Shown: piece after piece, positions 1 through 28,720 of the stretch
How the letters are laid out: every line of letters starts with the position of its first letter
Position numbering within the stretch: the stretch's first letter is position 1
DNA from: Candidatus Latescibacterota bacterium
Lineage (GTDB): Bacteria; Latescibacterota; UBA2968; UBA8231
Length of the DNA stretch: 64,000 nt
Reading direction: 5' to 3'
Assembly (NCBI GenBank): GCA_965261395.1
Contig: OZ253462.1
Location: 5,248,001-5,312,000, forward strand
The notes under the pieces: generated by a model
Told to the model about the DNA's origin: nothing
The model's input: the letters and a program-made list of their open reading frames with translations, nothing else
The model's database searches: none
Made by a program: the position numbers and the translations under genes

Positions 1-2
1 TC

Positions 3-653: not shown

Positions 654-750
654 TACCCTCCGTACTAAAGGGCACGTCCCAGCTCTCCGGTGGCGCGCAT
701 CCTGCGCAACAAACAGAGTCGTCTGAAAATGCACGAGTCCCCCAGAAGCG

Positions 751-1758: not shown

Positions 1759-1763
1759 GGCGT

Positions 1764-2840: not shown

Positions 2841-2847
2841 GGCGTCT

Positions 2848-4008: not shown

Positions 4009-4044
4009 ACACCTCCACCAAAAATCGACACCACCAAGATCAAC

Positions 4045-4611
4045 TTACTCATTGGTCGCGCCCTCCCCCGGCTTCCACAACACATCCGCCTCCCCGCCGT
4101 CGTTGACGGCCCGAGCCATCGCGAACAGCAAGTCGGAGAGCCGGTTGAGATACAGCAGAACCGGCTGGCCGACCGACTCTTGCTCCGCTAGCTGCCAAGT
4201 TGCACGCTCGGCGCGCCGACACACCGTACGCGCCAAGTGGAGCCAAGCGGCGGAGAGCCGTCCCCCAGGCAAGATGAAGCTCCGCAAGGGAGCCAAGTCT
4301 TGCGTGAGGCGGTCAATCTGCTGCTCTAGGAAAAGGACCTGCTGCGGCTGCACGCGCAGGCGCTCTTCTGCGCCATCCGCCTGCGGGACGCACAAATCGG
4401 CCCCCAAGTCGAAGAGATCGTTTTGCACCCGGGCGAGGACGTCGTCGTGCTCCGTGCCACTGGCTCGGGCCAGCCCTATCACCGAGTTCAGCTCATCTAC
4501 ACACCCATAAGCGGCGATGCGGGGACTCGTCTTGGGCACTTGCGACATATCGCCCAGCCGCGTCATACCGCCGTCGCCTGTCTTGGTGTAGAGCTTAGAT
4601 AGCGTAACCAT
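4045..4611 (-). CDS. pduO: ATP:cob(I)alamin adenosyltransferase, PduO type
   Basis: KLYTKTGDGG, AYGCVDELNS, FILPGG, ARTVCRRAER and YLNRLSDLLF motifs. Confidence 0.93.
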   Translation of the reverse strand: MVTLSKLYTKTGDGGMTRLGDMSQVPKTSPRIAAYGCVDELNSVIGLARASGTEHDDVLARVQNDLFDLGADLCVPQADGAEERLRVQPQQVLFLEQQIDRLTQDLAPLRSFILPGGRLSAAWLHLARTVCRRAERATWQLAEQESVGQPVLLYLNRLSDLLFAMARAVNDGGEADVLWKPGEGATNE

Positions 4612-4623
4612 GCCTGTTGCCTT

Positions 4624-6033: not shown

Positions 6034-6058
6034 GTAAATCCTCCTTAGTTCGTGGTTA

Positions 6059-6114
6059 GTAGGGGCGTCCCCTAGGGAGCGGGGCATTTGGACGCCTACA
6101 AGGGTTGCCCCTAC
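6059..6114. repeat. GTAG-type REP-like palindrome
   Basis: GTAGGGGC...GCCCCTAC inverted ends; related elements at 33741-33768 and 35486-35499. Confidence 0.6.
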
Positions 6115-9261: not shown

Positions 9262-9936
9262 CTAGTCCCTCAGTAGGATGTTCTGCTCCTTCAGGCTCTG
9301 GATTAGTTGGCTAAATTTAGGCACCAATCGGATCACGATACGTCGGTTAGGGGACTGTTCATCCTTTGTTCCGGTTAGAACAACCAGCTCTCGCTCGCCT
9401 AAGCCAACCGGGACGATATCAAAATTTTCCCAAGTGAAGCCGACCTGCTCCCAATAGTCCACTATAGTTTGAGATCGTTTCAGGGATAGACTGCGGTTGT
9501 ATTCCTTCTCGCCGTAACTGTCGGTGTGACCCTCTACCACAATACTGAACAATTTACTGTCTTTTTTTTCTATAAACTGCTTTAATTTTTGACCTATTCG
9601 CCTGAGCCGATTTTGCCCTTCGACGGGAATATCATCCAGATCGGATTCATTAAAAGAGAACAAGATATCACTACGCATCACAATAGTACCCTCTTCCACG
9701 ACGACGTCTTCCCCCCCCATAAATTCCTCTAACTCATCGAGATCTTTCTCTATCTTACCCACCAACTCTTCTAGCGTCCGCAGACGGCTCAGATCCACAT
9801 AATTTTTGATCACCATCACGACGAGAAAAAAAGTGACGCAAATGAAAATAGCCGTGATTGCGTCCGTGAAAGAAGGCCAGAAATTGAGCCCACTATGGCT
9901 ACTGTGATTCCTTTTCATCCAGGGCTGCTTTCCCAA
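9262..9936 (-). CDS. ZorB/MotB-like membrane protein with an OmpA-like peptidoglycan-binding domain
   Basis: FWPSFTD transmembrane helix with the conserved Asp; EGHTD, NRSLSLKRS and NRRIVI OmpA_C motifs. Confidence 0.85.
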   Translation of the reverse strand: MGKQPWMKRNHSSHSGLNFWPSFTDAITAIFICVTFFLVVMVIKNYVDLSRLRTLEELVGKIEKDLDELEEFMGGEDVVVEEGTIVMRSDILFSFNESDLDDIPVEGQNRLRRIGQKLKQFIEKKDSKLFSIVVEGHTDSYGEKEYNRSLSLKRSQTIVDYWEQVGFTWENFDIVPVGLGERELVVLTGTKDEQSPNRRIVIRLVPKFSQLIQSLKEQNILLRD

Positions 9937-9957: not shown

Positions 9958-11631
9958 CTATTCCTTGCTATTTTTCTTGAATAATCGACGAATCCAACCC
10001 CAATTTCTTCGCGGTCGTACGGTTACAACTTGCGGCGATTTCGCCATGCCGTCCAACTGTTTTTCTATAGCCTGCGCCGTCGCATGCATGTCTTCAAGCT
10101 GGGGGATTACCTGATCGATAGCTTTCAGTACTTGGAGATCCTCGTCCGTTTTTTTGAACCCTTGATTGATGGCTCCTACCATTTGATCTAGCTGGTTCTG
10201 CAACGCCCCTGTCGCTTTGCTCAATCCCTGTAGATCTTGGCGAAGCCCTTCCAAGCCATCTTGTACAGGTTGGTTAGCCCGTTCAAACGCTTCGCCTTGT
10301 TCCTTACCCAATCTTTGCAGATCTTGGCGAAGCCCTTCCAAGCCATCTTGTACAGGTTGGTTAGCCCGTTCAAACGCTTCGCCTTGTTCCTTGAGGCCAT
10401 TACTGACAGCACTGAGCAGGTTCTGGATATTCGTGAAATGGGGACGATAATCTGTGTCATTCAATCCTCTTATCGTCTCTAGAGTCTCCGCTAGGCCGTT
10501 TCCTAGAATCTCTATTCGCTCCTCAAATAACTTGGATTGTTTGTCTATCCGCTCATCAAAGGCTTGAAACTGTCGGGCCATCAGTCGCTCGCTCTCCTTG
10601 AGCATAGTATCGACGCTGTTCTTGAGCGCATTCAGAGGCCAGCTTAGCCGCTCAAAGTTCTCGATGTGTCGAGAAAACTCTATAGCCGCTCTCATTATTT
10701 TTTCCGCCCCCGCAGCTACCGTATCCTTGTGCTGCTCAAAAATCTCCGCGCTCTTCAGACTGGCCTCGCTACTTTCCTTGAGCTTCGTGCCGCTCTCTTC
10801 TATAAGTAAGACCATGCGGGCGTTACTATTGACAATCTCCTTGAGTCTTTTGTCTAAGTATTCGGAAAGAGCAGTGAAATACTTATCGTATAGGTCGTTT
10901 ACTGTTCGAGTAAAGGCGTGACTCAAGCGCAACTGAGGAGGGATTACAGCAAACTTGGGAGCGATCTTCGCGTTGAAGCACTCTTCCATGTTTGCCAATA
11001 ATGTGTTCCTACTGTGGAGTAGTGGGCTGTACAGAGCATTGAGGATTAAGGTGGAAAAAAGTCCTATTATACTGGTAATGAACGCCAGCGGCATCCCGCT
11101 TACGGACTGTCCTAATCCTTCTAGGATGGTACTAAATACATCCTCTATTTTTACCTCTTGGCTCAACGTCGGTGAAATCTGCGCTCCTTGGATAATACCT
11201 GGGATAGGTATGACCACGATTATTAAACCAACGAATGTGCCCAGTAGGCCCAATAGAATGAGGCTGCTGGTAAGTGAGCGGAATGCTTCGTCGTACCGGG
11301 CGAGTTCGTGTTCGATAGAGCCGATAAGACCGTCTACATCTGGAGCTTTATTTTGCCGGTATAAGGCCCTAAAATGTTCGAGCCAACGGACGGCTAGAGG
11401 ATGCTGAGCTTTCTTAAAAACTTCGGGAGATTGCTCAGTCTCTTCCTCCATATTGAAATTAGGATTGCTTTTCTCCCATCTCTCCATAGCATGCAATCCG
11501 CTGCGATATCGCCGCGTTTCTCTGCATCCTTGGACAAATAGGACAAGTGCAACTAGACCGACCAAGATAATGAGAACGATAAAAACGTCCCGAATCTGAT
11601 CGCTGTTTTGGGCTAAAAAGTCTAAACTCAT
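9958..11631 (-). CDS. ZorA-like MotA/TolQ/ExbB channel protein with a long cytoplasmic coiled-coil tail
   Basis: Three transmembrane helices, including LGLLGTFVGL and GMPLAFITSIIGL, followed by ~350 aa of helical heptad-rich sequence; directly upstream of the MotB-like gene. Confidence 0.8.
   Translation of the reverse strand: MSLDFLAQNSDQIRDVFIVLIILVGLVALVLFVQGCRETRRYRSGLHAMERWEKSNPNFNMEEETEQSPEVFKKAQHPLAVRWLEHFRALYRQNKAPDVDGLIGSIEHELARYDEAFRSLTSSLILLGLLGTFVGLIIVVIPIPGIIQGAQISPTLSQEVKIEDVFSTILEGLGQSVSGMPLAFITSIIGLFSTLILNALYSPLLHSRNTLLANMEECFNAKIAPKFAVIPPQLRLSHAFTRTVNDLYDKYFTALSEYLDKRLKEIVNSNARMVLLIEESGTKLKESSEASLKSAEIFEQHKDTVAAGAEKIMRAAIEFSRHIENFERLSWPLNALKNSVDTMLKESERLMARQFQAFDERIDKQSKLFEERIEILGNGLAETLETIRGLNDTDYRPHFTNIQNLLSAVSNGLKEQGEAFERANQPVQDGLEGLRQDLQRLGKEQGEAFERANQPVQDGLEGLRQDLQGLSKATGALQNQLDQMVGAINQGFKKTDEDLQVLKAIDQVIPQLEDMHATAQAIEKQLDGMAKSPQVVTVRPRRNWGWIRRLFKKNSKE
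10232..10392. repeat. In-frame tandem duplication (87-bp period, 74 bp identical) in the ZorA-like tail
   Basis: 10232-10305 is identical to 10319-10392 and encodes KEQGEAFERANQPVQDGLEGLRQDLQ twice. Confidence 0.95.
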
Positions 11632-11688: not shown

Positions 11689-12639
11689 TCATTTCGCTAG
11701 CAAAATCCCGGACTTAACAATTACCTCAGTTCCCCGACGTAATCCAGGTGTAACAAATCGAATCACTTGACCGCGGCCTACCTGAGAATCTTCTCGCTCA
11801 TCGGAAATTTGGTGATCTTCTGGCGAGTATTTGTCCCCTTGCTCTGGCCAAATCAACTCAAAGTCGCGTTCTTGGGCAAATCTTTCCAATTTTGCGGGTT
11901 TCTGTTCTAGCGATTTTTCTTTGCCATCCAACTGTTTGATTAAACCGATCAGTGCAGAATCCCACGGACTGCTACAACTGTCTATCTTAGCTTGGATCGT
12001 CGTCCATTGATCTTTGAGAGCCGATCCCTCCGATATAAAAGAGACAAAATCCAATTTATTCACTGCCTCTTTGATCTTTTTGATGTCCTCGTCAATGGTC
12101 TCGGCATACTGTATCGACGGCATACTCTTTTCAGGTTCTAGTGGCAGTTCGTCGAGCATTTCTCGGAAACGATCTCGGGTATTTGTAATCTTTGAGTATT
12201 TTTTCATCCATTCTTCGGCAGCATCCCGTACTTCTTCTTGGAATGATCTTAGTCTCTTTTCCACATCAACCTCTAGCTTTTGCAGCTCTTGAAACTTGGT
12301 GTTGATAGGGATAGACTGGTAGAGATCTGCGTAATCGTCGTAGGAGGCTTGTATATTGTCGTGGAACTTTGTCAGCTTTTTTCTGAAGTTACTCAAATCG
12401 TTCAAAAACATGCCAACTTTCTTCACAAAGCTCTCTTCCGCTCCATCGAAGCCCTTGGCTACATCGAGGATATCCGAGAAGACGAGGCTGCCGAGATCGC
12501 CCTTGTGTAGTTTCTCGCGGATATGTCTTGTCTTATCGACCATTTCTCGCAGACCTTGGAGTTCTTTCTCCCAGCAGGCAACCTCGCTGCCTAGCGCGTC
12601 AACCTTTTCTTGAAATTCTGCCATTGATACCTTACCCAT
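11689..12639 (-). CDS. Coiled-coil protein with a C-terminal GrpE-like (nucleotide exchange factor) domain
   Basis: C-terminus IWPEQGDKYSPEDHQ...GQVIRFVTPGLRRGTEVIVKSGILL resembles the GrpE head (GexFDPxxH...GxVxxVxxxGY); next to an Hsp70-like gene. Confidence 0.7.
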   Translation of the reverse strand: MGKVSMAEFQEKVDALGSEVACWEKELQGLREMVDKTRHIREKLHKGDLGSLVFSDILDVAKGFDGAEESFVKKVGMFLNDLSNFRKKLTKFHDNIQASYDDYADLYQSIPINTKFQELQKLEVDVEKRLRSFQEEVRDAAEEWMKKYSKITNTRDRFREMLDELPLEPEKSMPSIQYAETIDEDIKKIKEAVNKLDFVSFISEGSALKDQWTTIQAKIDSCSSPWDSALIGLIKQLDGKEKSLEQKPAKLERFAQERDFELIWPEQGDKYSPEDHQISDEREDSQVGRGQVIRFVTPGLRRGTEVIVKSGILLAK

Positions 12640-12722
12640 TTAATGTTTTGCTGATCTTTACTTTTAGTGTCTTACCTGAATCTATCTCATAAATGCCATT
12701 GATACCGTAGGGACCGATTTAT

Positions 12723-12834
12723 GAGATGCTTCGACTCGGCTGCGCGGAGTTTATCTTGAGCGAAGCCGAAAGGCTCAGCATGACAGGGGCTAGCTCGGTC
12801 CGTGCTTATCATGCTGAGCGTAGCGAAACTTCCT
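12723..12834. repeat. REP/MITE-like palindromic element between the Hsp70-like and GrpE-like genes
   Basis: GAGATGCTTCGACTC...GCTCAGCATGACA and its inverse TCATGCTGAGCGTAGCGAA, with a nested TTTATCTTGAGCGAAGCCGAA unit. Confidence 0.6.
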
Positions 12835-12864
12835 GTCAGGTGCATTGGCATTGCTACAAGGCAT

Positions 12865-15800
12865 TCAACTGTAGTTAAAGTTCTTGCATTCCAAGTATTC
12901 ACCATAGATTTCTTCAAAATCACTTCCATCCTTTTTCTGCCCTACCGCGAAATTGTAATAGAGCCGACCGAGATTGTTTTCATCGCCTCGAAGCTCGAGC
13001 TTGTACTGCCAATAAGCGATCTGCCGAAAAGCCCTGTCCTCTATGTCCTCTAGCGGTATGGGAATATCCGCTACTTTATGCCGATCTGCTCTCCGATTTT
13101 TGTAGTTCCAATCGAAGAATTCGTACAGTGAGATCTGAGAAAGTCGATCCTTAGAGAAAACCTTGCTCGTATAGGGATGTACCTCTCCCTTATTTAGGGA
13201 AATCCAACGATCGAAAATGGGCCTGAAGCCTCGCATTGGATTGTAGGAACCTATCGGATAATTTAGCTTGTGTATCCCGAAGACTTGAAATCTGAACTCT
13301 GGATCGCGTTGAGACATGCCGTAAATAGCCGCTCCCGAAGCTACGCTCGCCTTCAAGTCATTATTGGAGCCTGCCTCTGAAAGAGCAGGGTCAGAAAACT
13401 TTTTAGCCTGTATCTCCTCTGAGGCGACTTCTTGCACAATCGGCAACTTGGACGAATTGCCGGCCAAGATCAGATGATCCAGCCGCATTTCTGATATAAT
13501 CCCCCGATCATAAAGTTCCTTCTGCATCATAGCTAGTTTTTTGAAACCCTGTTTCAATTCTCGGCTGAACACCGAGCGAATAGCCTCGTACTTCATAGGG
13601 CTAAGTTCCTCCGGCAAGGCTTCGTCCTTGTCCTTGATGCTGCGCTTTAATCCCTCCGTGACTTGAAATACATCGCCCCCATCCGGGCTGACCAATTCAA
13701 TTTTGGGCCACTTTAGTTCCTCGTCACTGGCTAGCAGGTCCAGCAATCCCTTATCTCTTGTCTTTTGTAGTTCCTCGTAGCGTTTTTGGGAAAAACATTC
13801 GTCGAACAACTCATAGCTCTTGCTGTTTGTCTTGATCCTCTCAGCTAACTGATAGAGGTGCAGAAAGTTCCTTTTCACACTGGTATCTTGGGTGCGTAAG
13901 CCATCTCGCAGATCTTTTGCAAAGGGATAGCGACTGCGGTACTGTTCCGGGACGAGTTCCTCGTAGAAGTATTTAGCCAAGTGAAATGTCAGCAGGTTCC
14001 CTCCCAGCAGATTGTCGCCATCGGAACCGAGAATTTTCACTTGCACTTCATTATCATCGCTAGTGTAACGTACGATAGACATATCGGTCGTTCCCCCACC
14101 GCAGTCGAATACCCCAATGATCTGTTCATCTCCCGGATTATCCTCCCCGAGCTTCCACACATAATACACCGCAATAGCTTCAGGTTCACTAATAGCTAGA
14201 TCTCGGTCGAACTTAATGTCGTGATCCTGCAAAGCCTGTTCGACCGCGTTCTGCAGAGCCTGTTTTTGGCGATTGAATATCGCCGGATAAGTTAGTACGA
14301 CCTCGCTAGGTGAATACCCGGATTCTCCGATGAAGTGCTCTACCATAAACCGGAGATAAATAGCTACTTGGTCCACCGGAGTCAGGCTGATATGCCGCCT
14401 ATTTATAGAGGGATGTCCATTGATCAAGATACCTTCCGACATCCCGGTAGAAATATAGAAATTCTGATCGTCGGGTTGGCTGAGAGCGTATTTGAAACTC
14501 CAGCAGATACTGCTCATAAAGTTCCAGAACTCATTGACGTCATTATTGTTATTGAGCGAAAGGTCATTCATCTGCCGAAATGGCTGACGACCAAAGCGCA
14601 TGATGGCTTCCTCGTTCTCGGTTGCAACCAAGTGATGCTCATTCGGCTCCAGAGAGTGGGTCAGTTCCAAACGTTCCGTTTTATTATTTATTGCCAGAAG
14701 CTGAAAGACAGTCGGTATTTCGACGCGAGGTTCATCGCTCTCGAGGTCTGCCAAGTGAGGCATCTCTCCATCTTCAACATAATAAGCCAAGCAGGAATTG
14801 GTTGTCCCAAAATCGATGCCAATGGGATAATCTAACGGTTTGGGAGGAATAACCTCGACAGGGAGCGAAAACCTCTCTTCGAACGCCGGATCTTCCGCTT
14901 CTATATCCTCAGCCTCTCCCTTGACTATGATCTCGGGTTCAAAATGCTTTGATTCTGTTGTCTGCGGGATATCGATAGTCTTCACTTGCAACTGCAACTG
15001 GAGATTCAGCACACTCTCCTCATCAGCACCCGCCGCTGCACTCTGAGAGTCAAGGAGGGCCTTCCTTGGGGGGTCAACGACCTGTAGCCAAGGCGTATCG
15101 CTGGTCACGCTATTTATGCGTAGTGGTGCGCCCCGTAAGTGCGTAATGGTGGCACTCACCTCTTTCGGTCTTCGACTTCCGCTGATAAGTGCCGTATCAC
15201 CGGATAAACTCAGCGGATTGAAGTCCAGCTTGAGCACCGGCTGACGAGTGTACTTTAGATTGAGACGAAATTCGACGTCACCTATGTTCTGGATGGGAAA
15301 AACGAGATGTACAGGATGTCCTTCTTCAGACAGATCTTGATGTCGGGTGAGCTCTACCGAAAAGGCTTTGTATGGGGCCAAGCGGAAGGGATAGTTTACC
15401 TCGTTTTCCAGCACCGCCACTTGCTCTTCCTGGGACAGACGGGGACACTTTCCCAAGACCACTTCGCTTGTAGCGTGCAGGGCCAGATTGTGCCTCCAGG
15501 CTTTCTCATTCACCGGCCACAACTGTGCGCCGTCAGTGCCTTGGTCAAACTCCCGCCCCTGCTCGTCAGCCAGCCAGATTCGGGGAGCCTTTTGGACCCG
15601 ATAATGAAATGAAATCGGTGACACCGTGGAGTGCAGGATCAACCGCTCCCGTTGGCCGTGAGACTCGGCATGCAGCCGACGTATTTCTATTGCTTCCCCT
15701 AGATCCAAGGAGACGGGCCAATTCGCTTCCGAAACCCATGCTCCCCATTCTACTCCATCGAGACGTTCCAGTTTCACGGGTATTTTCCCGGTATTCTCGA

Positions 15801-15996
15801 ACCGCATGATGACTGGAAAGCCTTCGAAAAGCGTCAACGACTCAACGGGCTTGGGAGATACCTCTAGACGGGCGAGTTGAGTCCCGCAACTGCTGCAAAA
15901 GATGATTCGGCTTCCACAAGGCCACTGACAAACAGGACAAGCACCCATCGCCTTATCGACCCGCTCTTGACTCGCTTCCCTAGGCATTGGCACCAT
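12865..15996 (-). CDS. Divergent Hsp70-family ATPase with an N-terminal zinc ribbon and Ig-like region (not DnaK)
   Basis: IGIDFGTTNS, ISEPEAIA, VFDCGGGTTD, LGGN, LAGNSSKLP and VASGAA Hsp70 ATPase motifs starting at about aa 390; N-terminal CPVC...FCSSCG; no DnaK substrate-binding domain recognisable. Confidence 0.85.
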   Translation of the reverse strand: MVPMPREASQERVDKAMGACPVCQWPCGSRIIFCSSCGTQLARLEVSPKPVESLTLFEGFPVIMRFENTGKIPVKLERLDGVEWGAWVSEANWPVSLDLGEAIEIRRLHAESHGQRERLILHSTVSPISFHYRVQKAPRIWLADEQGREFDQGTDGAQLWPVNEKAWRHNLALHATSEVVLGKCPRLSQEEQVAVLENEVNYPFRLAPYKAFSVELTRHQDLSEEGHPVHLVFPIQNIGDVEFRLNLKYTRQPVLKLDFNPLSLSGDTALISGSRRPKEVSATITHLRGAPLRINSVTSDTPWLQVVDPPRKALLDSQSAAAGADEESVLNLQLQLQVKTIDIPQTTESKHFEPEIIVKGEAEDIEAEDPAFEERFSLPVEVIPPKPLDYPIGIDFGTTNSCLAYYVEDGEMPHLADLESDEPRVEIPTVFQLLAINNKTERLELTHSLEPNEHHLVATENEEAIMRFGRQPFRQMNDLSLNNNNDVNEFWNFMSSICWSFKYALSQPDDQNFYISTGMSEGILINGHPSINRRHISLTPVDQVAIYLRFMVEHFIGESGYSPSEVVLTYPAIFNRQKQALQNAVEQALQDHDIKFDRDLAISEPEAIAVYYVWKLGEDNPGDEQIIGVFDCGGGTTDMSIVRYTSDDNEVQVKILGSDGDNLLGGNLLTFHLAKYFYEELVPEQYRSRYPFAKDLRDGLRTQDTSVKRNFLHLYQLAERIKTNSKSYELFDECFSQKRYEELQKTRDKGLLDLLASDEELKWPKIELVSPDGGDVFQVTEGLKRSIKDKDEALPEELSPMKYEAIRSVFSRELKQGFKKLAMMQKELYDRGIISEMRLDHLILAGNSSKLPIVQEVASEEIQAKKFSDPALSEAGSNNDLKASVASGAAIYGMSQRDPEFRFQVFGIHKLNYPIGSYNPMRGFRPIFDRWISLNKGEVHPYTSKVFSKDRLSQISLYEFFDWNYKNRRADRHKVADIPIPLEDIEDRAFRQIAYWQYKLELRGDENNLGRLYYNFAVGQKKDGSDFEEIYGEYLECKNFNYS

Positions 15997-18030
15997 CCAT
16001 CACATATATATCGTCTTTGCAGTGAGGATCGCTATAGTCTAGGGGTTTGGCAAAACCATCTTTGTTCTGCAAGTGTTTGCCGATACGGTCGTCCAATTCG
16101 CTGTCGCTAATGCCCAAGCGCTGCTGCACATCCTTGAAATTCTCTTTGAAAGCCTTGATAAGCAAACTGTGGAACAAGTCATCCACATTCACACTCTGGC
16201 CGTCTATTACAACTCTTCTTTTGGGATATACCTCACTCACTAGATGGCTTTGGAGGGCCAAGTACTGCTCAAAAACGAGGCCATTGCCATCCGATTTCCA
16301 GTTATCCCAAATCTTTTGCACCGCTTGGCGCAGCCTATTTCGTTTCTCCCGGTCTCGGGCCAAACTCCGGCGTGCCACCTCGATATTGGGTCCGTAATCG
16401 TCCGTGTGCTTTAGGCCCTGTTCTTGGTAAGTTCGGTAGAATCCCCGTCTGTCAAAAGTCACTACCTCGAGTAAGATACCATCAATGAGCGGCTGTAGGG
16501 CATCCACTAGCATCCGCGCTTCTTGGTCGTCCCTAGGCGGTAGTATCTCCGGATATTTGATATAGTCTTTGGTCATGTACCGACGGAATACATTCTGCGG
16601 CACTCTAAGGTTGTTTTCGTATGCTCTGTGCAGCTTCCTCAAATTGTCGATAGCGAACAGAGGAAAGGCCATCCATTGACTGACAAATATCACCGAATCG
16701 GGGGCGTGATACTCCGCTTTGTATCCTCCCACGTTTTGGTCGACTAGCTCCTCCCACCTTTTTTCATTTGGGGGAAGTCCTATGGTTTTCCGAGTGTGGT
16801 TCGACATACCCTGCGGGGCAGGTTTCAACTCGGACATCCGCGCTTCGGCTAGCCGTGCTCGTTTCTGCATCTCCTCTTTCTCGTTATGTTTCTGATTTTG
16901 CAACTCTTGAACGGCGTTTCTATCGGCATAGAACTCCTTAAATAGGTCAAACGCGAACCGACTCAGTGAATCCTCTACCTCTTCCCAATCACGAGGGGCA
17001 TTGTTCTTATTCGCCGAGCGATTGAAAATAATGCGGGTACAATCTCGTATGGCATCGATCTCTGTCCCTTCGAGATTAGCGTACTCAGCAAACAGCGGCT
17101 TGGCTTCTTCCGAGCGGAAATACCTCCTCAAAATATCTTGCAAAATTTCCTTGAAACCGGCACCTGTCAGTCCTCTTTTTTCGAGCTCCTTCCTTATTGC
17201 CTCCTCATAGTTAAGTTCGGGCATGAGACTGAGGTTGCGTACACTAGGCATCCGCTTTCTATAAGAATTATGGAACCCCTCAAATCGGCTAGCCAGATCT
17301 TGGAGATGTTTTTGAAATTCCTCTACCTTGGCCAGCAAACCGCTGAATTCCACATGGAGTTCACCATCTGCACCCCGGACTTCGGTCTGTTGGCCGACAA
17401 AGCCGATCATATTGTCAAGCAAGCCCTTTTCCTGCACCCGTCCCCCGGAATTGGGATTGAGCAGACGCCCAGCCGCTTCCTTCTCATAGCGAGTGGTGAC
17501 CCATTCCTTGAGTTGCTTCTCGACAGCCTTCACCTGCTGCACCAGATTACGGGTGATAAGCTCGGCGTTCTGCTTAAGGGATTGCTTTTTGCGTCCTTTG
17601 TAATGGTTGATAGCAATGCGTTTAGTTGAGAAGGCAAAGGGCATCTCCTCCCTAGCCGCTTTTAGGCGAGCCTCGTATTTCTCGTAATCTTCGGTAAATT
17701 CGATTTCGAGCGGCGGTGCCTCTAGTGCTTCTATGTCCTGATTCTCCCTAGCCTGCAATTCCTCTTTGATGCGCTCCAGTTCGCGGACGGCGATCTTCAG
17801 CCACTCAACCATAAACTTGGGGCCGAAATTCAAGGGGTCGCACAATAATTCAAGACACTCATCCTCTACCCGCTTTTCGAGCTTGGGACGATCCAAGCCG
17901 ATATTTTCCAGGATCTGCGTCACACCATCGCCCTTTTTGGTGCCTTGCTGTAACAGTCTTTCCCCTACTCGTTCCTTCACCTCGCGGACTAATCTACCCA
18001 TATCCTGCCGCGTTTTTTCCACTAGGTGAT

Positions 18031-19215
18031 GGCTTTGGTGCATGAATTGGTGTTTTTTTCGGTTGATCGGTTGAATAAAAACAGGCTCCTCAGTAGATTG
18101 AGCACGACTTTCGCCAAAAAACCCATGCTTTCTCGTCCAAGGAACCTGTCATGGCCAACCTATCGTCTTGCCCCTCTTCCGTCAAGCCTGGTCGCTCGCC
18201 TCGCCGTCGCTCCAACGTCGTGTACCGGGTACGTAATTGGGCCGACTATGAGGCCGGGCTGCAACAGCGCGGTAGTCTGACGGTGTGGTTCACGCCCCAG
18301 GCCGTCGAAGCTTGGTATTATCAAGGGCCGCCTCAGCGGGGGGCGCAATATACCTTTTCGGAGGTCGCCATCCAAACGGCGTTGACGCTGCGTCTTTTGT
18401 ATCACTTGCCCCTACGCCAAACCGAGGGGTTTGTCGCTTCGGTGTTGGCCCTGATGGGCTTGGATCTGCGGGTGCCCGATCACACGACCCTGTCGCGCCG
18501 TCAGGCGGGTTTAGCCGTGGCGTGGCCGCCCCAGCGGGGAGACCAACCGATGCACTTGGTGGTGGATTCGACCGGGCTGAAAGTGTATGGCGAAGGCGAA
18601 TGGAAGGTGCGTCAGCACGGCTGGAGCAAGCGGCGCACGTGGCGCAAATTGCACCTCGGGGTTAATGAAGCCACCGGCGAGATCGTCGCGCAGACCTTGA
18701 CGACGAATAGCCACGATGATGCGGGGCAGGTGGAGCCGTTGCTGGCACAGATCGAGGCCCCCGTGGAGGCGTTGGGCGGCGATGGGGCCTATGACAAACG
18801 CAAGGTGTTCAAGGCGTTGGCCGCGCCCGAGCAGGGGGCACCTATTCATCCGATCATTCCGCCGCGCAAGGACGCCAAAATCGAGCAACATGGCAACACC
18901 AACGCCGAGCCGTTGCCCCGCGATGAGACGATTCGAGCCATCCGCAAACGGGGCCGTCGAGGTTGGAAACACGAGAGCGGCTATCATCGACGCTCGGTAG
19001 CCGAAACGCAGATAGGCCGCTACAAACAGATACTTGGTGACACCTTGCGCACCCGAACCCTAACCAACCAACAGACCGAAGCGCGGTTGGGCTGTGCCTT
19101 GCTCAACCGGATGCGGGCGTTGGCGAAACCTGAGTCCTATCCGCTAACCAAAAAAGCGTAAATCACACGCGAAAGAAGCCAACACGGCCCCGACCGGTTT
19201 TCATGCAACAAAGCC
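18031..19215 (+). mobile_element. IS5-family insertion sequence, IS903 group (1185 bp)
   Basis: Terminal inverted repeats GGCTTTGGTGCATGAA / TTCATGCAACAAAGCC; perfect 9-bp target duplication CTAGGTGAT at 18022-18030 and 19216-19224. Confidence 0.95.
18151..19161 (+). CDS. IS5-family (IS903 group) DDE transposase
   Basis: YRVRNW..Y..GL..RGSLTVWF, PDHTTLSRR, VDSTGLK, WRKLHLG, DGAYD and GYHRRSVAET motifs. Confidence 0.95.
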   Translation: MANLSSCPSSVKPGRSPRRRSNVVYRVRNWADYEAGLQQRGSLTVWFTPQAVEAWYYQGPPQRGAQYTFSEVAIQTALTLRLLYHLPLRQTEGFVASVLALMGLDLRVPDHTTLSRRQAGLAVAWPPQRGDQPMHLVVDSTGLKVYGEGEWKVRQHGWSKRRTWRKLHLGVNEATGEIVAQTLTTNSHDDAGQVEPLLAQIEAPVEALGGDGAYDKRKVFKALAAPEQGAPIHPIIPPRKDAKIEQHGNTNAEPLPRDETIRAIRKRGRRGWKHESGYHRRSVAETQIGRYKQILGDTLRTRTLTNQQTEARLGCALLNRMRALAKPESYPLTKKA

Positions 19216-20728
19216 CTAGGTGATCCAAATCCTTTTGATCCTCTACCGCCGATGCCGTGTGCAACTCGTTCTGCAACTCATTGAAAGCCGGTTCGATCAA
19301 CTCGTTGACGACCTCATCAATCAAGGTGAAATCCTTTCCCGGCTTGGCCAAGCAGCGTTGCAAAAAGAGTTTCTCAGTTAGGCCCATCCCCTCTAAGCGG
19401 GGTTTGACATCGGCATCATCATAGCCCTGAGGGATTCTGTTGTCCTTGGCCATGATAAGTTCTACCAGATACTGAGCGCAACGGTTAGCAGCCGCATTGG
19501 CCAGACGAGGCTGATTCAATTCAATCTGGGAGAGCCCGAAAGATGCATATCGGCATGGAAAATACTGGACATAGCTTCCGTTGTGGTAGCCTGTCACATC
19601 CTGTAGGTACTGCTCCATATTGGAACGTACGCTGCGCTTTTGAGCGGCAAATCTAGTCCGGTCGAAATCCAGCAGCAGAAACTCAGCAATCATCTGGAAC
19701 GTATCGGTAAATTCGGTGATGCGTTCGCCAGCCACATTCTCGTTGTCGAGCATATAGACCGTATCAAAAGGCGGTGCTGGCACCGGCCGAGGGCTACCAC
19801 CACCCCAATTAAATTCGTGGGTGGAGTATTCGCTTGTCTCCTTATCCTCGTCGGCGACAAACCGGGGCTGCATGAAGTATTCGAGTTCCTTGAGGGCGGC
19901 AAAGCCATTGGCATGGACGGCTTCTGTCCCGGCGGATCCCACTACATCGTCGAAAACCGTGGGCATGGCAAGAAAAGCCGTGCGCGTAGAAGTTGGGAAC
20001 AAAACTCGACACAGAAATCCGACATCGATAAAGCAGCCAGACCCCGTTCCACCGCCGAGAGACGATATAATAATGATATCGAAGGCCCTAGTATCTACCG
20101 TATAATCTGGGTAATCGCGGTTCATGTCCGCGAAGGCCTCTTGGGCAGTTACTTTTCTCCCCAATCTTTCGATGGCGTCGTGAATTTCCGTGTAATGGTG
20201 GAAGAAAGCCAATCGCCCGAAGGAACGGATCTGCCCAGCACCTTGCATGATGGCATTAGCAGGCAGCGCGTCCAGTTCGCTGGGAAACCAGTCCCATATA
20301 TGCGGATAGGCATTCTTGTTGAGCCGGTATCCAGCCAACTCCTCGGGCTGGACCCGTCCATCAATTTTCTGTGGAGCGGTAAGGTCAATGCGCTTGTCCA
20401 ACTCGTCGGGCACCTCTCCGCTCAGGGACTGATTGCGGATATCAGTATCAAACCATAGGTACTCCATGATGGGTAAACCCGCTACTCTGTACTTCTCGTA
20501 GAACATCCGTCGCAGCCGCCGCAGTACTTCCTTTCCCGTACCTCCCAAGCCGATCAAAAGCGTGGGACGGATATCGATCGTTTGGCTTCCTTCTTTTGCT
20601 GTACCTATAGTAGTTATCTCAACCATGGTGTTCTCCTTCAATGTTGATCCAACTCAGTCATTAGATGCTTTTCAGGTCGAAGCCCCCGACGGCTGTCGTA
20701 CGAGGGCATTGGGACTCACTCGGAATTC

Positions 20729-21760
20729 TCAGCGGCGGCTTGGCCGGGTGACAAGTTTTGCTATCACCACAATGCAGAGGATCACCATCCCAAAGATGAG
20801 GATTCGCCATTCAATTTGCGAACTTGACTCCCAGCCCATCAAAAAATCAAAAAATCCGCTCAACCCCAAAGAGGCGATCAGCGCAATGCCTCCCCACAAC
20901 ACGAGGGCGGACCAACCAAAAGCTGTGGCCGGGTGCATGTCTCGGGTCTTGATGAGTCCGCTAAAAAGTAAGACCGAAAGGATATAGACGATTACAGAAA
21001 GTACCAAAATCCAGACTATGCGCCCAACCTCCACATAGCGAAAGGTGCCCTTCGATCTAGTCTCCGGCGGAGGTACCCCTACCTCGACAGGTTCATATTG
21101 GTCCGAGGAGATGCCCAGCAGCGGTTTAGCTTCATCAATTGAGACCGCAAAGTTGAGATTCTGCCCCTCGTCGTGGCTAGAGCTTAGATTAAAACTTACC
21201 ACGCCAATTACCTCTCCGTTCTGGTCGAATAAAGGCCCGCCGCTATTGCCCGGCGATACGGCGGCATCCGTCTGAATCAGTCTGAGGCCCTCCGGGGTAG
21301 TGCGAACCTCGGAGATAATCCCTTCGGTGACCGAGTATTCTAGCCCCAAGGGGTTGCCTATTGCCACCACGGGATCGCCCGAGCTCATATATTCTCCTGA
21401 CCCAAGCCTAGACGGCTGTAGGTGTTGGCCGCGCGGATCGACGTTTATCACCGCCAGGTCTTTGAGTTCGTCTTGGGCGACAACGCCCGTAATCGGCATC
21501 CAAGTTCCTTTGAAAGGCTTGGCCCATCCTTCTTTGATGCCCTTGATTACATGGTGCGCCGTGAGAATTTGGCCCGTTGACTTGATGATGATTCCGCTCC
21601 CCAGCCCTTCTCCCTCATTGGTAGAGACCTTGAGGAATACTACGCTTCCCTTCTCTTCCTTGGCAATCCGCTGAGTAAACGTGGAGCCGCTTTGTCCCGA
21701 CCCGCCACACCCCATCCAGCCGATAGCCAGTATGAATCCGAGCGTGATGTGCCGTTTCAT
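20729..21760 (-). CDS. Trypsin-like (S1C) serine protease with a lipoprotein-type signal and ~3 C-terminal transmembrane helices, no PDZ domain
   Basis: Catalytic triad motifs TAHHV, DLAV and GNSGGP; IQTDAA; N-terminal ...GWMGC; hydrophobic C-terminus. Confidence 0.88.
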   Translation of the reverse strand: MKRHITLGFILAIGWMGCGGSGQSGSTFTQRIAKEEKGSVVFLKVSTNEGEGLGSGIIIKSTGQILTAHHVIKGIKEGWAKPFKGTWMPITGVVAQDELKDLAVINVDPRGQHLQPSRLGSGEYMSSGDPVVAIGNPLGLEYSVTEGIISEVRTTPEGLRLIQTDAAVSPGNSGGPLFDQNGEVIGVVSFNLSSSHDEGQNLNFAVSIDEAKPLLGISSDQYEPVEVGVPPPETRSKGTFRYVEVGRIVWILVLSVIVYILSVLLFSGLIKTRDMHPATAFGWSALVLWGGIALIASLGLSGFFDFLMGWESSSQIEWRILIFGMVILCIVVIAKLVTRPSRR

Positions 21761-21775: not shown

Positions 21776-23404
21776 TTATTTGAGGCGTTCCAGTTCAAAT
21801 TCATTGCCCTTGTGTTTGAAAACCCATTTTTCATCCTTTTCAAAAGCCATCCCCTCCTCACCGACTGGATCGTCCATCCGATTTCTTAGTTCGGCCCTTT
21901 CGTCGCCCTCTTCGGCCGGCAGTAAGCGGTATTTGCATTTGAACAGGCCGTCTCGCCGCAAATATCCCAAAACGATATCCTTTCCGCTTTGGTTTGTGTA
22001 CTCCAATTCCTTTTGACCGCCGGGGCGCATCCAGTACTTGTACTCGACGTCTGCCAGCCGATAAACGAGCCTCCTGAAATAAACCATTCCCCCGGCAGCT
22101 ACCACAGCGATGGGTAGCAAGATCACCACGACCCAAGCCCGCCACAGATAGAGAGGGGAACGGACTTGCAACCTGCCTCTTATGGCTCCTCCCTTGGGCA
22201 CCACTTCCAAACCCTCTCGGTCTCGGTGCAGGAAGTGTATCAGATCGTCTGGCGTATAGATACGCTCGACCTCTTGGGGGTTGTCGGTAAAGTACTTCTC
22301 CTGATAAAGAGGAGTCATGCGAAACGAGCCAGGCGGTATTTCCAAGACAACCTTGGACATATATTGCATCGGAATCGGGCTGGTACGCGCCATGTCAAGC
22401 TGGTCGAAGAAGCCAACCTCGTTGGGCTGGAACGGGCCTAGGCGGATCCGGCACGAATAGCGGTATTTGTTCTGGGTATTGTGCTCCAGTTTCTCTTCAA
22501 GGCGGGGTGGAGTAACTCGTCCTCTCCCACTGGCTCGAATCCAGTACCGCCGGTCTTCGGGCTGCATGGGAACGATCCTAGGCTGACTCACCTTCAACCG
22601 CACCGGATTACCATGCTCATCTGTCGGCTCGATATTCAGGTAGCTCAATTGCGACTCTAGAGTAAAGGAGAAATCGACCGACTCGGATTCGTCCATGCCG
22701 ATATCACTTAGCTGGTCCGAAGGTGTCCTGCGTTTGCGATGTAGAACAATGCGGTGGTCTAGCGGTTTCATCAGCATCGGTTCCAAGCCGCCAGCCTTGA
22801 GTTGGGAGATGAGTTTGCCGAATCTAGCGCGCTGATCTTCTTCTGTGAGATAGGCATACAGGACCACCCCACGCGGACCTTGGTGGTACGCCTTGTCCGG
22901 GTGATTGAACAACCGCCCGTCAAAGGGCAGACTCAGCGGCACGGCATATAGTACTTGTACCACATCCTCCGCAAAACGCGCATAGAGCCCCCGAACATCC
23001 TCGTCATTGGTGGTCGCCTGCACATTATCGGTTAAGAAAAAAGTAATCGGCGCCCATCCAAGCCCTTCTTCAAAAGCCCTGAGCAAATTAGTATAGCTGC
23101 CCCAGCGTGCGTCTTGGGTCTCCTCGATCCACACTAGCGAATCCGGGTGTTGGGATACAAAAAATAAAGTGCCCGCCTCCAGTTGCTGGTCTTGGCAGGC
23201 TTTTTCCAACGAGGTCAGCAATTTCTGTAGCTCACCTGTCTGCTGGAAGCCCTCCATTGAACCAGAGCCATCGACCAATATGCTGACATCCATCCCAGCG
23301 GCGGCACGAGGGCCGCCAAGCCCTAGGCAGCACAGCAGAGCAGCGTACCAGAATGACCGGCTTTCAAACGGCCAATAGGTCATAGCGATACAGATGGTAC
23401 TCAT
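21776..23404 (-). CDS. vWA-domain single-pass membrane protein
   Basis: Signal peptide, MIDAS-like ILVDGSGSM ... T ... FLTD, C-terminal transmembrane helix (AWVVVILLPIAVVAAGG) and a short cytoplasmic tail. Confidence 0.7.
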   Translation of the reverse strand: MSTICIAMTYWPFESRSFWYAALLCCLGLGGPRAAAGMDVSILVDGSGSMEGFQQTGELQKLLTSLEKACQDQQLEAGTLFFVSQHPDSLVWIEETQDARWGSYTNLLRAFEEGLGWAPITFFLTDNVQATTNDEDVRGLYARFAEDVVQVLYAVPLSLPFDGRLFNHPDKAYHQGPRGVVLYAYLTEEDQRARFGKLISQLKAGGLEPMLMKPLDHRIVLHRKRRTPSDQLSDIGMDESESVDFSFTLESQLSYLNIEPTDEHGNPVRLKVSQPRIVPMQPEDRRYWIRASGRGRVTPPRLEEKLEHNTQNKYRYSCRIRLGPFQPNEVGFFDQLDMARTSPIPMQYMSKVVLEIPPGSFRMTPLYQEKYFTDNPQEVERIYTPDDLIHFLHRDREGLEVVPKGGAIRGRLQVRSPLYLWRAWVVVILLPIAVVAAGGMVYFRRLVYRLADVEYKYWMRPGGQKELEYTNQSGKDIVLGYLRRDGLFKCKYRLLPAEEGDERAELRNRMDDPVGEEGMAFEKDEKWVFKHKGNEFELERLK

Positions 23405-24653
23405 GATCGCGGGTCATCACGTACACGTATTTGCCGAAACCCGCTGGCGGCACAACCGGATCTTCGCCTAAAGGCCAGCCGCGCAAGAAAGGTTCCCCTC
23501 CTCGTTCATCAAGACGGGAAAGACGAAATTCCGTATTAGCTCCCACTCCTCTTTGGAAGTTGGCGACCAAGCCGCCCAAGCCTTTGGTCTGATCAATGTG
23601 CCTCATGGAATATCCGAGACTACACTCCAATTTGGACGTAACTTGCCGATTCAATGGATCGAACAATAGCATAAAATTAGACCCTATCGCCATATAGCAA
23701 TAGCCGGACTCGATCCGCAGTGCCTGTAGGGCCTGTACCTCTACCTCGGTTCGGCTCGGAATTTCTTTTAGCACCTGTTGGCCGACTAACTGTAGGGCAC
23801 ACAAGCCCCCTTCTTGAGTCAATAGCCATATTGACGGATCCTCGCCGCGCATCACGCCCGCCGAAGCGGCTAATGGACCGCCGCGGGCATCCTCATCCTC
23901 ATACGAGATTTTCTTGCCCTGTTCCAAATCCAAGAAAACAACCCTGTTTTCCTCTTCTATTAAGCCCAGATAGGTCTCGCTTCCCCGAATTGGGATCATT
24001 TCTTGGATAGGCAACGAATTTTTGTCTAGCTCTTGCTTTTGCAATTCGTCGAAAATGCGGTTTTCGCTCTTCCAGTATCGATCGCAACTTGCTTTATCTA
24101 CCTTATATACATGAATAGTCAACGCCTCTTGGTCCAGCAGGAAAAGCCGATTCCGGCCTAAGGCAATCTTCTCGACGCGCTCACATTCCACGGCAAGCGG
24201 CTTCCATGAAGCAGCTTTCAGCATATCGTCGTTCAACAACGAAGAGGTCGGAAACACCTGCAGCGTCCCCACCTCCGTGAGCGCGTAAATCCACCAGCGG
24301 TCAAAATCCACCTGACGCAAGGAAGTCGAATCCCCTTTGAGTGGAGGCAGGTCGTGTGGCTCGTTCTCTATGTAGGTACTCATTTCTCCGCTGGATTTAT
24401 CCACTAATAAAGGCTGGCCGAATACGTTAAAGAGGTCGTCGACTTGGTCCATAATGACCGGCAGATTCCTGACAGCACTGTCTTTACTCTCTCCGGAAGG
24501 TATGTCGGCCATGTAATCGACAGGTTTGCTCTCGACAGCACCGCCGCAAACGGCGCAAAAATTAGCGAGCGCATGATGCTCGCGGCCATCTTTAGAACAC
24601 GTCCAAGCGTTCTTATGCCAATTCCAGTCTTGCATCATTTCTCGCATCCTCAC
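23364..24653 (-). CDS. Hypothetical protein with an N-terminal zinc-ribbon-like motif and a probable beta-propeller
   Basis: C...FCAVCG at the N-terminus; repeated IYALTEVGTL / IWLLTQEGGL / VYVMTRD blade-like strands; first gene of the island operon. Confidence 0.6.
   Translation of the reverse strand: MRMREMMQDWNWHKNAWTCSKDGREHHALANFCAVCGGAVESKPVDYMADIPSGESKDSAVRNLPVIMDQVDDLFNVFGQPLLVDKSSGEMSTYIENEPHDLPPLKGDSTSLRQVDFDRWWIYALTEVGTLQVFPTSSLLNDDMLKAASWKPLAVECERVEKIALGRNRLFLLDQEALTIHVYKVDKASCDRYWKSENRIFDELQKQELDKNSLPIQEMIPIRGSETYLGLIEEENRVVFLDLEQGKKISYEDEDARGGPLAASAGVMRGEDPSIWLLTQEGGLCALQLVGQQVLKEIPSRTEVEVQALQALRIESGYCYMAIGSNFMLLFDPLNRQVTSKLECSLGYSMRHIDQTKGLGGLVANFQRGVGANTEFRLSRLDERGGEPFLRGWPLGEDPVVPPAGFGKYVYVMTRDHEYHLYRYDLLAV

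Positions 24654-26717: not shown

Positions 26718-26731
<14 letters not shown>
24782..26731 (-). CDS. Amylo-alpha-1,6-glucosidase / glycogen debranching enzyme (GDE, archaeal-type)
   Basis: [48 protein letters not shown] and QAWSVAE motifs. Confidence 0.92.
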
Positions 26732-28673
<1,942 letters not shown>

Positions 28674-28720
28674 GCGAGCTAACTCCTCATTAGGGTGTAA
28701 ATAGCCATCAATAGCGCAAA

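Follow-up and report, generated by a model that had tools for sequence, protein, structure and literature searches.

We analyzed a stretch of 64,000 nucleotides (hereafter, the window; contig OZ253462.1 of assembly GCA_965261395.1, positions 5,248,001 to 5,312,000 of the forward strand) from a Candidatus Latescibacterota bacterium; all coordinates below are those of the window. Its minus strand carries an operon that encodes, in order, a zinc-ribbon protein (gene 1), a membrane protein with a metal ion-dependent adhesion site (MIDAS)-like motif (gene 2), a protease (gene 3), a tubulin-like protein, an Hsp70-like ATPase, a GrpE-like protein, and two proteins resembling the stator subunits ZorA/MotA and ZorB/MotB. 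The present analysis centers on the Hsp70-like gene (12865..15996, minus strand; 1043 amino acids) and the GrpE-like gene (11689..12639, minus strand; 316 amino acids). On balance, we favor the interpretation that the two products are an Hsp70-type ATPase specific to this system and a GrpE-type exchange factor dedicated to it, and that both are fixed parts of an accessory, envelope-spanning eight-gene operon, in which they probably drive or reset the encoded assembly instead of folding proteins generally.

Assignment of the 1043-residue protein to Hsp70 draws on Pfam, on a DnaK profile, and on an AlphaFold2 model. The initial annotation had described Hsp70 motifs that begin only after approximately 390 residues of zinc ribbon and beta-rich sequence, and this description was borne out: the first motif (phosphate-1, DFGTTNS) begins at residue 395, behind a zinc ribbon at residues 18-40 and an all-beta region at residues 44-383. 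The Pfam HSP70 model (PF00012) scored 51.1 bits against a cut-off of 20.6, over residues 545-682 only, while the nucleotide-binding domain (NBD) of Escherichia coli DnaK (1dkg_D) aligned in three colinear stretches (residues 392-421, 551-685, and 821-862; E 3.1e-13). When a profile of the 23-member family was compared by hhalign with 53 DnaKs, residues 388-1015 corresponded to DnaK residues 1-495 with a probability of 99.9. Across the 23 sequences the equivalents of the DnaK catalytic residues (here D395, K502, E604, D631, and D638) are invariant and T636 is conserved in at least 90%; the Hsp70-type catalytic center is intact. Chance does not explain these features: conservation extends over the full length of the protein, with identities of 69-95% to relatives and 32-47% to members of a second clade.

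The AlphaFold2 model (pLDDT 82, pTM 0.69) places four regions along the protein: the zinc ribbon of CxxC...CxxC type (nt 15877-15945), which has weak Pfam matches to DZR and Zn_Ribbon_1 (E 0.06 and 0.22, respectively); three beta-sandwich domains that make up the all-beta region (residues 44-135, 140-260, and 278-383; nt 14848-15867); an NBD with enlarged inserts (residues 390-897; nt 13306-14829); and a C-terminal beta domain (residues 903-1040; nt 12868-13290). Besides the weak zinc-ribbon matches, the N-terminal 385 residues returned only sub-threshold language-model leads (scores 0.75-0.77), to Ig-like families of the BACON/HYDIN type, and we regard the modeled beta-sandwich domains as putatively Ig-like.

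Among structural matches to the model, Hsp70 and Hsp110 chains ranked best (Z 28-31). Superposition on DnaK chain 4b9q_A (Z 29.1, root-mean-square deviation 4.7, 477 residues aligned) paired model residues 389..1042 with DnaK residues 2..505. The extent of such alignments depended on the state of the match: ATP-state full-length chains of DnaK, BiP, and Ssb aligned over approximately 472-480 residues, as far as model residue ~1042, whereas NBD-only chains and ADP-state chains with an undocked substrate-binding domain (SBD) aligned over approximately 350-368. These comparisons provide a structural lead that the C-terminal domain may occupy the position of the docked beta subdomain of the SBD (SBD-beta) in ATP-state DnaK. 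Thus, the initial view that no DnaK substrate-binding domain is recognizable holds for the sequence (residues 900-1043 against a DnaK alignment, E 0.35), but probably not for the predicted fold. The helical lid (SBD-alpha) is absent; alignments to full-length DnaK end at approximately residue 505, and the protein stops, at residue 1043, where the lid would start, its last modeled strands lying at residues 995-1004 and 1010-1019.

The NBD also aligned with MreB, ParM, and FtsA chains (Z 17-24, with MreB at 24), as would be expected if the Hsp70-like protein were instead a structural or polymerizing ASKHA ATPase of the actin/MreB kind, or part of a decoy or effector assembly, with the GrpE-like protein serving mainly as a coiled-coil scaffold. 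Such a role would suit the missing lid, the missing J-protein, and the low-confidence helices that form the first 112 residues of the GrpE-like model, and tubulin and HSP70 have both been suggested as multimer-forming effectors (Kaur, Burroughs, Iyer and Aravind 2020, PMC7159879, in its accessible text). Nevertheless, the Hsp70 and Hsp110 chains scored higher, with an alignment that continued through the linker and the putative SBD-beta, and the Hsp70 catalytic set is invariant; we therefore think a polymerizing ATPase very unlikely.

The neighboring 316-residue protein had been described as a coiled coil ending in a GrpE-like head, a description that profile comparisons of the C-terminal domain and a library scan have upheld. 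Its model is mostly helical, with residues 1-116 at low confidence, a long helix at residues 113-162 (nt 12154-12303; pLDDT ~90), and helices at residues 177-239 that continue to residue 256. Five or six short strands follow at residues 261-314, and the GrpE-type beta-domain spans approximately residues 250-316 (nt 11692-11892). Two colinear sub-threshold segments of the Pfam GrpE model were detected, residues 117-164 matching profile positions 7-54 and residues 254-308 matching positions 104-157, the latter (E 0.12) when the last 143 residues were scanned alone. Against a GrpE reference alignment built from 27 genomes of the phylum, the close family together with three positional counterparts gave an E-value of 6.7e-5 (residues 241-316 corresponding to GrpE 142-212), and residues 240-316 alone gave 1.3e-5, compared with 0.23-0.39 for the reversed control.

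Two subtypes of the GrpE-like protein are joined by a single hidden Markov model (HMM) step, in that the HMM of the close family retrieved L154:14488-15798 (L numbers denote loci recovered in our searches) at E 3.2e-5 among 491 open reading frames (ORFs); the subtype of the other genus matched GrpE at E 1e-5 from four sequences. In an hhalign comparison of the C-terminal 100 amino acids of 24 HMM-linked proteins with 27 GrpEs of the phylum, the probability was 95.2 and the E-value 2.5e-8, with residues 250-316 in register with GrpE 147-212; the control E-values were 0.41 for reversed GrpE and 0.26-0.7 for four alignments of unrelated proteins. Two further proteins, L155:11271-12569 and L229:12788-15085, had been chosen by eye as GrpE-like; they lacked HMM support and were excluded from the 24-sequence test, and adding them gave E 3e-9.

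Wider searches with the C-terminal domain led to the same family. A 17-sequence profile matched a single entry of the PDB at E<=10, GrpE 4ani_A (E 0.093), and 333 of 1.84 billion protein representatives at E<=0.001, nearly all of them through their C-termini. We scanned 137 of the best 150 among these 333 matches with Pfam: PF01025 exceeds its gathering score in 88, among them ordinary GrpEs of approximately 200 amino acids such as P0199 (139.9 bits; library E 4.9e-8). The remaining 49 lack any Pfam family at E<=1e-5, and in none of the 137 does a family other than PF01025 cover the matched domain. A 'GrpE family' cluster was the second-ranked language-model neighbor of residues 240-316 (score 0.90), and a PF01025 label was already precomputed for 7 of 35 homologue clusters. 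Judged from these profile comparisons, the C-terminal ~70-90 residues are a GrpE beta-domain, while the helical core (residues 113-240) is too diverged to assign to GrpE. Many of the library matches (P0168-P0300) are 400-650 amino acids long and carry the GrpE domain only at the extreme C-terminus, behind long unannotated N-terminal regions, and one such 'long GrpE' also has a LysM domain; these proteins may mark other private Hsp70 systems.

Searches that were dominated by the rest of the protein were less informative. Fold searches returned Hsp70 chains for the Hsp70-like model but no GrpE for the whole GrpE-like model, in which the helices dominate and the beta-domain was barely probed: Foldseek against the PDB gave no match at E<=0.001, and the VIA wide fold search gave generic helical proteins (top Z 9.2). 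Sequence searches of the PDB with the GrpE-like protein alone, or with its full-length family alignment, yielded chance-level helical matches only. An uncontrolled co-folding of the NBD (residues 385-900) with two copies of the GrpE-like protein (residues 113-316) scored 0.00 and is neutral as evidence. By BLASTP, the GrpE-like protein did not match the genome's own GrpE, and in six-frame scans of whole genomes the Pfam GrpE model found the housekeeping copy only, including in the operon-bearing genomes G025, G029, G035, and G038.

The initial annotation had also held that the Hsp70-like protein is not a housekeeping chaperone, and the genomic context agrees. Distinct from this operon, the genome carries an hrcA-grpE-dnaJ cluster and a DnaK-like gene, each at a place of its own. 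The Hsp70-like gene, which lies on an island and always in the same operon, was detected (E<=1e-30) in just 16 of the 168 genomes in the phylum sample, representing 4 of its 49 genera. The alternative, a diverged housekeeping paralogue (an HscA- or HscC-like Hsp70 with a second GrpE) that merely adjoins the tubulin and stator genes, has in its favor that the best NCBIfam names are DnaK and HscA and that one source labels the relatives 'molecular chaperone DnaK'. The best NCBIfam score is 57.4 bits, however, against an equivalog cut-off of 648. The gene order is fixed, with start and stop overlapping, the family as a whole retains the ~390 extra N-terminal residues, and the same linkage recurs in distant metagenomic operons; together with the distribution, these facts leave the housekeeping alternative with almost no credence.

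No J-domain protein had been seen beside the pair, and none came to light here: PF00226 matched none of the 11 proteins of the region and none of 35 proteins of related operons. This negative result covers the operons only; a dnaJ-like gene, whose product the Hsp70-like protein might use, adjoins the genome's housekeeping grpE.

Full-length matches to the Hsp70-like protein in the genome collection numbered four, all from Candidatus Latescibacterota. In viral contigs, 31 loci were found, all of them DnaK-like partial matches (22-43% identity) and none full-length. Hsp70-like ORFs of approximately 423 amino acids and Desulfuromonadales type (L081, L093, L099, and L104) looked unrelated to the operon and were set aside. 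The gene order seen in the window is identical in all ten related loci, of which seven are from the same genus (69-81% identity in the Hsp70-like protein) and three from another family (34-36%).

A similar arrangement was found in the metagenomic operons L155, L156, and L229, in which the Hsp70-like proteins (858-964 amino acids; a zinc ribbon is visible in that of L156) are only ~25% identical to the one in the window. Their order is a gene-2-like gene, a gene for a small transmembrane (TM) protein that replaces the protease, Tubulin_2 (E 1e-43 to 6e-59), Hsp70-like, GrpE-like, MotA_ExbB (which clears its cut-off in two of these operons), and OmpA/MotB (recognized by Pfam OmpA in L155 and L156 and by a ZorB-like tblastn match in L229). 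In the interval from the Hsp70-like gene to the stator genes, L155 and L156 have one or two proteins with HMM-supported GrpE-like ends, one of which (L156:11874-13022) matches positions 8-162 of the Pfam GrpE profile at 16.8 bits; the sole GrpE-like candidate in L229 was picked by eye and lacks HMM support. The fragments L162, L224, and L190 also link Tubulin_2 with an Hsp70-like gene, and locus L154 has three GrpE-like genes. Retention of a GrpE-type domain next to the Hsp70-like gene at ~25% identity suggests selection on nucleotide exchange, a further argument against a polymerizing ATPase accompanied by a mere scaffold. We conclude that the operon is conserved, accessory, and older than the Latescibacterota lineage in the window. 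Downstream of the Hsp70-like gene of L154 (13213-18786), the opposite strand carries three 324-amino-acid ORFs that share an identical C-terminal end and are interspersed among the GrpE-like genes; one was scanned and had no Pfam match, and these ORFs may be another repeated mobile element that breaks up the operon.

In the window itself, the tubulin-like gene is divided. Its 5' part (19216..20641, minus strand) belongs to the FtsZl1/Tubulin_2 family (PF13809, E 9.1e-66) and its 3' part (15980..18030, minus strand), a helical C-terminal region without a known family, was listed as an ORF of 687 amino acids (15980-18043). Between them lies an insertion sequence (IS) element of 1185 bp (18031..19215, plus strand) that encodes a DDE transposase (18151-19161, plus strand; Pfam DDE_Tnp_1_5 and DDE_Tnp_1) and is bounded by 16-nt inverted repeats and a 9-bp target-site duplication (18022-18030 and 19216-19224). 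We mapped the junction against the intact allele of locus L014, which encodes a tubulin-like protein of 1154 amino acids. The last 17 codons of the 492-amino-acid Tubulin_2 ORF in the window (19163-20641) are derived from the IS element, and relatives align to this ORF only over residues 1-474/475. In all ten related loci, the Tubulin_2 part and the 687-amino-acid ORF form a single gene of 1142-1156 amino acids, which identifies the ORF that overlaps the Hsp70-like start as the 3' fragment of the tubulin-like gene. The overlap reported in the initial annotation between the Hsp70-like start and the tubulin-like stop is therefore real (17 nt from the ATG at 15996, or 8 nt with translation starting at the conserved Met4), but the overlapped ORF is only this IS-severed fragment. 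The genome contains 20 identical full-length copies of the element, including that in the window, and 7 more at 81% identity, a pattern indicative of recent, rapid transposition. Although the genes for the Hsp70-like and GrpE-like proteins are intact, the split in the tubulin-like gene probably disables the system in this genome.

The gap between the Hsp70-like and GrpE-like genes is 225 bp in the window, compared with ~67 bp in two relatives. It contains a hairpin-forming segment of ~60 nt (12773-12833; fold z-score only -2.0) that has six further copies in the genome at 77-83% identity, and is a small dispersed repeat, possibly resembling miniature inverted-repeat transposable elements or repetitive extragenic palindromes.

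The remaining genes supply the membrane and periplasmic side of the operon, apart from gene 1. This gene (23364..24653, minus strand) encodes a 429-amino-acid cytoplasmic protein with a zinc-ribbon-like N-terminal cysteine pattern and a remainder without a known family; it had no Pfam match at E<=0.01 (weak Zn_ribbon_NUD only, E 0.24), only weak zinc-finger matches in a PDB profile search, no Walker A motif, and no hydrophobic segment, and all ten related loci have an orthologue at the corresponding position. A cytoplasmic location is likewise predicted for the tubulin-like, Hsp70-like, and GrpE-like proteins. Gene 2 (21776..23404, minus strand; 542 amino acids) has an N-terminal signal-like segment, one C-terminal TM helix (residues 416-434), and a DxSxS motif (MIDAS-like) whose residues D45, S47, and S49 are invariant in 8 of 8 sequences, with a T-D pair downstream; its von Willebrand factor A (vWA)-like character is suggested by this motif, and distant counterparts sit upstream of Tubulin_2 in L155, L156, L224, and L229. 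Gene 3 (20729..21760, minus strand; 343 amino acids) encodes a trypsin/HtrA-like serine protease (Pfam Trypsin_2, E 3.9e-29) with a lipoprotein-type signal and three C-terminal TM segments; it scored 141 bits with the NCBIfam Do-family model, under the cut-off of 416.

The last two genes form a stator-like pair. The A subunit (9958..11631, minus strand; 557 amino acids; PADLOC ZorA1, E 4.6e-10) has three TM segments and a long helical tail; it scored 19.5 bits with Pfam MotA_ExbB against a cut-off of 22.9, while its counterparts in L155 and L156 scored 36.5 and 27.6 bits. The B subunit (9262..9936, minus strand; 224 amino acids) has a TM segment with an aspartate (residues 21-39) and an OmpA-type peptidoglycan-binding domain (Pfam OmpA, E 1.1e-12), and PADLOC ZorB1 matched residues 8-218 (E 5.7e-21). 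Neither reached the NCBIfam cut-offs for Zorya (ZorA_2, 16.7 versus 100 bits; ZorB1, 34.9 versus 400 bits). The helical tail of the A subunit contains a perfect 87-bp tandem duplication (10232-10392; 1.9 copies, 29 amino acids), and orthologues of this subunit are 529-633 amino acids long, so that the length of the stator tail differs among relatives. In a second genus (L015, L016, and L017), the MotB/ZorB-like protein has 304-376 rather than 224 amino acids, and the gene of L015 has a second OmpA-like tblastn match, indicating that the peptidoglycan-binding end is extended or duplicated there.

The operon has the character of an island. The same-strand run of genes from 24653 to 9262 has a GC content of 0.46-0.57, compared with ~0.62 on either side, and the flanking genes for a debranching enzyme and a TonB receptor, 16.4 kb apart in the window, are 296-673 bp apart, leaving the site empty, in all five same-genus genomes checked that lack the Hsp70-like gene. 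In the carriers that we checked, the island occupies one common site, with the debranching-enzyme flank present in 7 and the receptor flank in 6 of the 10 loci. Both flanks consist of ordinary, conserved genes: a cobalamin-type uptake cluster at 1-8375 (TonB-dependent receptor, periplasmic binding protein, FecCD permease, ABC ATPase, and cobalamin adenosyltransferase), and glycogen debranching enzyme, acetyl-CoA synthetase, and SDR genes at 24782-30534. Promoter-like and terminator-like sites were not enriched over shuffled sequence (15 versus 13.1 and 19 versus 16.0, respectively).

These data bear on whether the operon serves in conflict or in the shaping of the cell. As a membrane-remodeling or cytoskeletal system, it would use an FtsZl1 polymer to shape or constrict the membrane, with the Hsp70/GrpE pair as assembly chaperone and the stator providing force or anchoring. 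Operons of FtsZl1 with vWA and OmpA/MotB proteins have been read as membrane-remodeling machines (Makarova and Koonin 2010, PMC2875224, in its accessible text), the island's neighbors are ordinary metabolic genes, and neither Pfam nor PADLOC found a nuclease or classical defense effector in the operon. Conversely, the island is patchy (16 of 168 genomes, with the site empty in 5 of 5 relatives) and low in GC, and the operon tolerates an IS knock-out in the window genome; for these reasons a dispensable accessory system fits better than core cell biology, although a facultative remodeling role is compatible with the same observations. We hold remodeling to be somewhat unlikely and, given the island-like distribution and the Zorya-like stator, lean toward defense rather than facultative membrane remodeling as the purpose of the system.

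How the preferred system-specific Hsp70/GrpE pair might act can be outlined from the predicted parts of the operon. The MIDAS-motif protein and the trypsin-like protease would contribute the periplasmic and membrane components, the ZorAB/MotAB-like stator would be proton driven and extend a long tail into the cytoplasm, and the cytoplasmic nucleoside triphosphatases would be the FtsZl1 tubulin-like GTPase of ~1154 amino acids and the Hsp70-like ATPase. The zinc ribbon and three Ig-like domains may dock the Hsp70-like protein on a fixed client, replacing a J-protein; the likeliest client would be either the stator tail or the tubulin-like protein, the latter through its helical C-terminal region. 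The lidless SBD-beta would clamp this client, and the GrpE-like partner, which by its domain assignment would accelerate nucleotide release, would recycle the Hsp70-like protein and set the rate of the cycle. Turnover of ATP could then assemble, disassemble, or reset the tubulin-like polymer or the tail complex, triggered by firing of the stator/sensor module, for instance upon an envelope breach during phage attack. It would be reasonable to see such a pair as a putative nucleotide switch or disassembly factor acting on the tubulin-like protein.

Several results weigh against this interpretation. At the level of the Hsp70-like protein, sequence lends no support to the SBD-beta reading, which depends on one AlphaFold2 model. 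For its partner, the whole protein misses the Pfam GrpE (PF01025) cut-off (21.5 versus 25.8 bits), and the close family gave, in the right register, a weak GrpE signal alone (E 0.0016) or with the two L154 paralogues (E 0.003); the strong signal needs pooling with the paralogous subtype, and the helical part (residues 113-240) is not significantly GrpE-like (E 0.035, versus 0.089 for the reversed control). In the remainder of the operon, the vWA identity of gene 2 is unconfirmed (no Pfam vWA match at E<=1 and no PDB profile match), the genes that flank the island are metabolic and transport rather than defense genes, and a PADLOC search of the 11 region proteins found no convincing known defense family besides the ZorA- and ZorB-like matches. 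The client proposed above is not singled out by any result here, and the break in the tubulin-like gene means that the copy in the window cannot be credited with any function.

A bolder version, in which the operon encodes a novel immune or remodeling machine triggered at the envelope, would have the pair couple a proton-driven ZorAB-like rotary sensor, through its tail, to a J-independent, lidless Hsp70 that is pre-docked on the tubulin by way of its zinc ribbon and Ig-like domains, so that GrpE-paced cycles release or assemble FtsZl1 polymers that wall off or constrict the site of invasion. We judge this version distinctly improbable; if true, it would be a prokaryotic example of tubulin dynamics that are gated by a chaperone and serve as an effector.

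Hsp70s normally act as general chaperones, with J-proteins directing them to their clients. Here, in a conserved Hsp70-like protein with a private GrpE, the lid and the J-protein appear to have been exchanged for a zinc ribbon and a putative Ig-like array, and the gene is placed between a bacterial tubulin and a stator-like motor, an arrangement that would show the Hsp70 cycle turned into a dedicated molecular switch. The FtsZl1 tubulins, known since 2010, would gain a concrete and testable set of partners, Zorya-type logic, in which a tailed motor recruits cytoplasmic partners, would be extended to partners other than nucleases, and the intact alleles in relatives provide material for reconstitution. 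Our literature searches, of partial coverage and in some cases poorly targeted, turned up only the comparative-genomics papers of 2010 and 2020 cited here, and yielded neither experimental studies of FtsZl1 nor an account of the combined architecture.

Compared with the canonical DnaK-GrpE-DnaJ system (1dkg, 4ani, and 4b9q), the pair shares the NBD fold, the catalytic residues, and a GrpE-type C-terminal beta-domain encoded by the adjoining gene, and its model shows a linker and a putative SBD-beta in the docked position of ATP-state DnaK. It differs in the ~390 additional N-terminal residues, the enlarged NBD inserts, the absence of a lid and of a J-protein from the operon, and, in the GrpE-like protein, an N-terminal helical extension of ~110 residues and a diverged helical core; unlike the canonical system, it is neither universal nor essential.

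In Zorya, a proton-driven ZorAB motor of 5:2 stoichiometry uses its long tail to recruit cytoplasmic effectors (Hu et al. 2024, PMC11946911, in its accessible text). The operon likewise pairs a MotA-like subunit, extended by a long helical tail, with a MotB-like one that has a TM aspartate and a peptidoglycan-binding domain; ZorA1 and ZorB1 are their best PADLOC matches, and a similar sensor-motor logic is plausible. In contrast, its partners are a tubulin-like GTPase and Hsp70/GrpE rather than DNA-binding and nuclease proteins, and PADLOC matched none of the 11 region proteins to ZorC, ZorD, ZorE, ZorF, or ZorG.

The closest precedents for the tubulin and stator genes are the FtsZl1 operons with vWA and OmpA/MotB proteins defined by Makarova and Koonin (2010, PMC2875224), who proposed the remodeling role. 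In the accessible material of that study, these operons share with ours an FtsZl1 protein of ~1100 amino acids, an upstream MIDAS-type membrane protein, a patchy accessory distribution, and, downstream, a 'B7' protein of ~520-550 amino acids followed by a MotB/OmpA protein of ~215-230 amino acids; we equate the MotA/ZorA-like protein with 'B7' by size and position, not by sequence comparison. Its fifth supplement lists a cyanobacterial vWA-FtsZl1-B7-MotB order and a Deinococcus FtsZl1-MotA/TolQ-OmpA order. Among the FtsZl1 neighbors in the supplement, one is annotated as DnaK (1626 amino acids) and one as GrpE (1083 amino acids), and the terms Hsp70, DnaK, and GrpE do not occur in the accessible main text. 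The present operon differs in having Hsp70-like and GrpE-like genes fixed between tubulin and stator, as well as a protease and a zinc-ribbon protein.

For the Hsp70/GrpE pair, the closest precedents are GTPase-centered conflict systems with either a tubulin theme or an HSP70 plus GrpE theme, for which NTP-driven multimeric effectors were suggested (Kaur, Burroughs, Iyer and Aravind 2020, PMC7159879). As described in the accessible text, these resemble our operon in placing a private Hsp70 and its own GrpE within a multi-gene, NTP-dependent accessory system, in including some Hsp70 copies without a peptide-binding domain, and in having tubulins with helical C-terminal extensions, zinc ribbons, vWA proteins, and peptidase components. 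In those systems, the tubulin and HSP70-GrpE themes do not overlap, are mostly firmicute or actinobacterial, and have DnaJ fused to an FNIII protein, whereas in Latescibacterota tubulin, Hsp70, GrpE, and a MotAB/ZorAB-like stator occur together without a J-domain. Those systems also carry one or two TRAFAC DO-GTPases and GAP1, while the operon in the window has no Walker-A GTPase: the motif [AG]xxxxGK[ST] is absent from its nine ORFs and from the intact tubulin, and a Pfam scan found no GTPase family, the search having consisted of this motif and a general Pfam scan with no dedicated DO-GTPase or GAP1 profile. We conclude that the tubulin, Hsp70, GrpE, and stator operon is a variant of the kinds represented by the FtsZl1-vWA-MotB operons described in 2010 and the Hsp70-GrpE conflict modules described in 2020.

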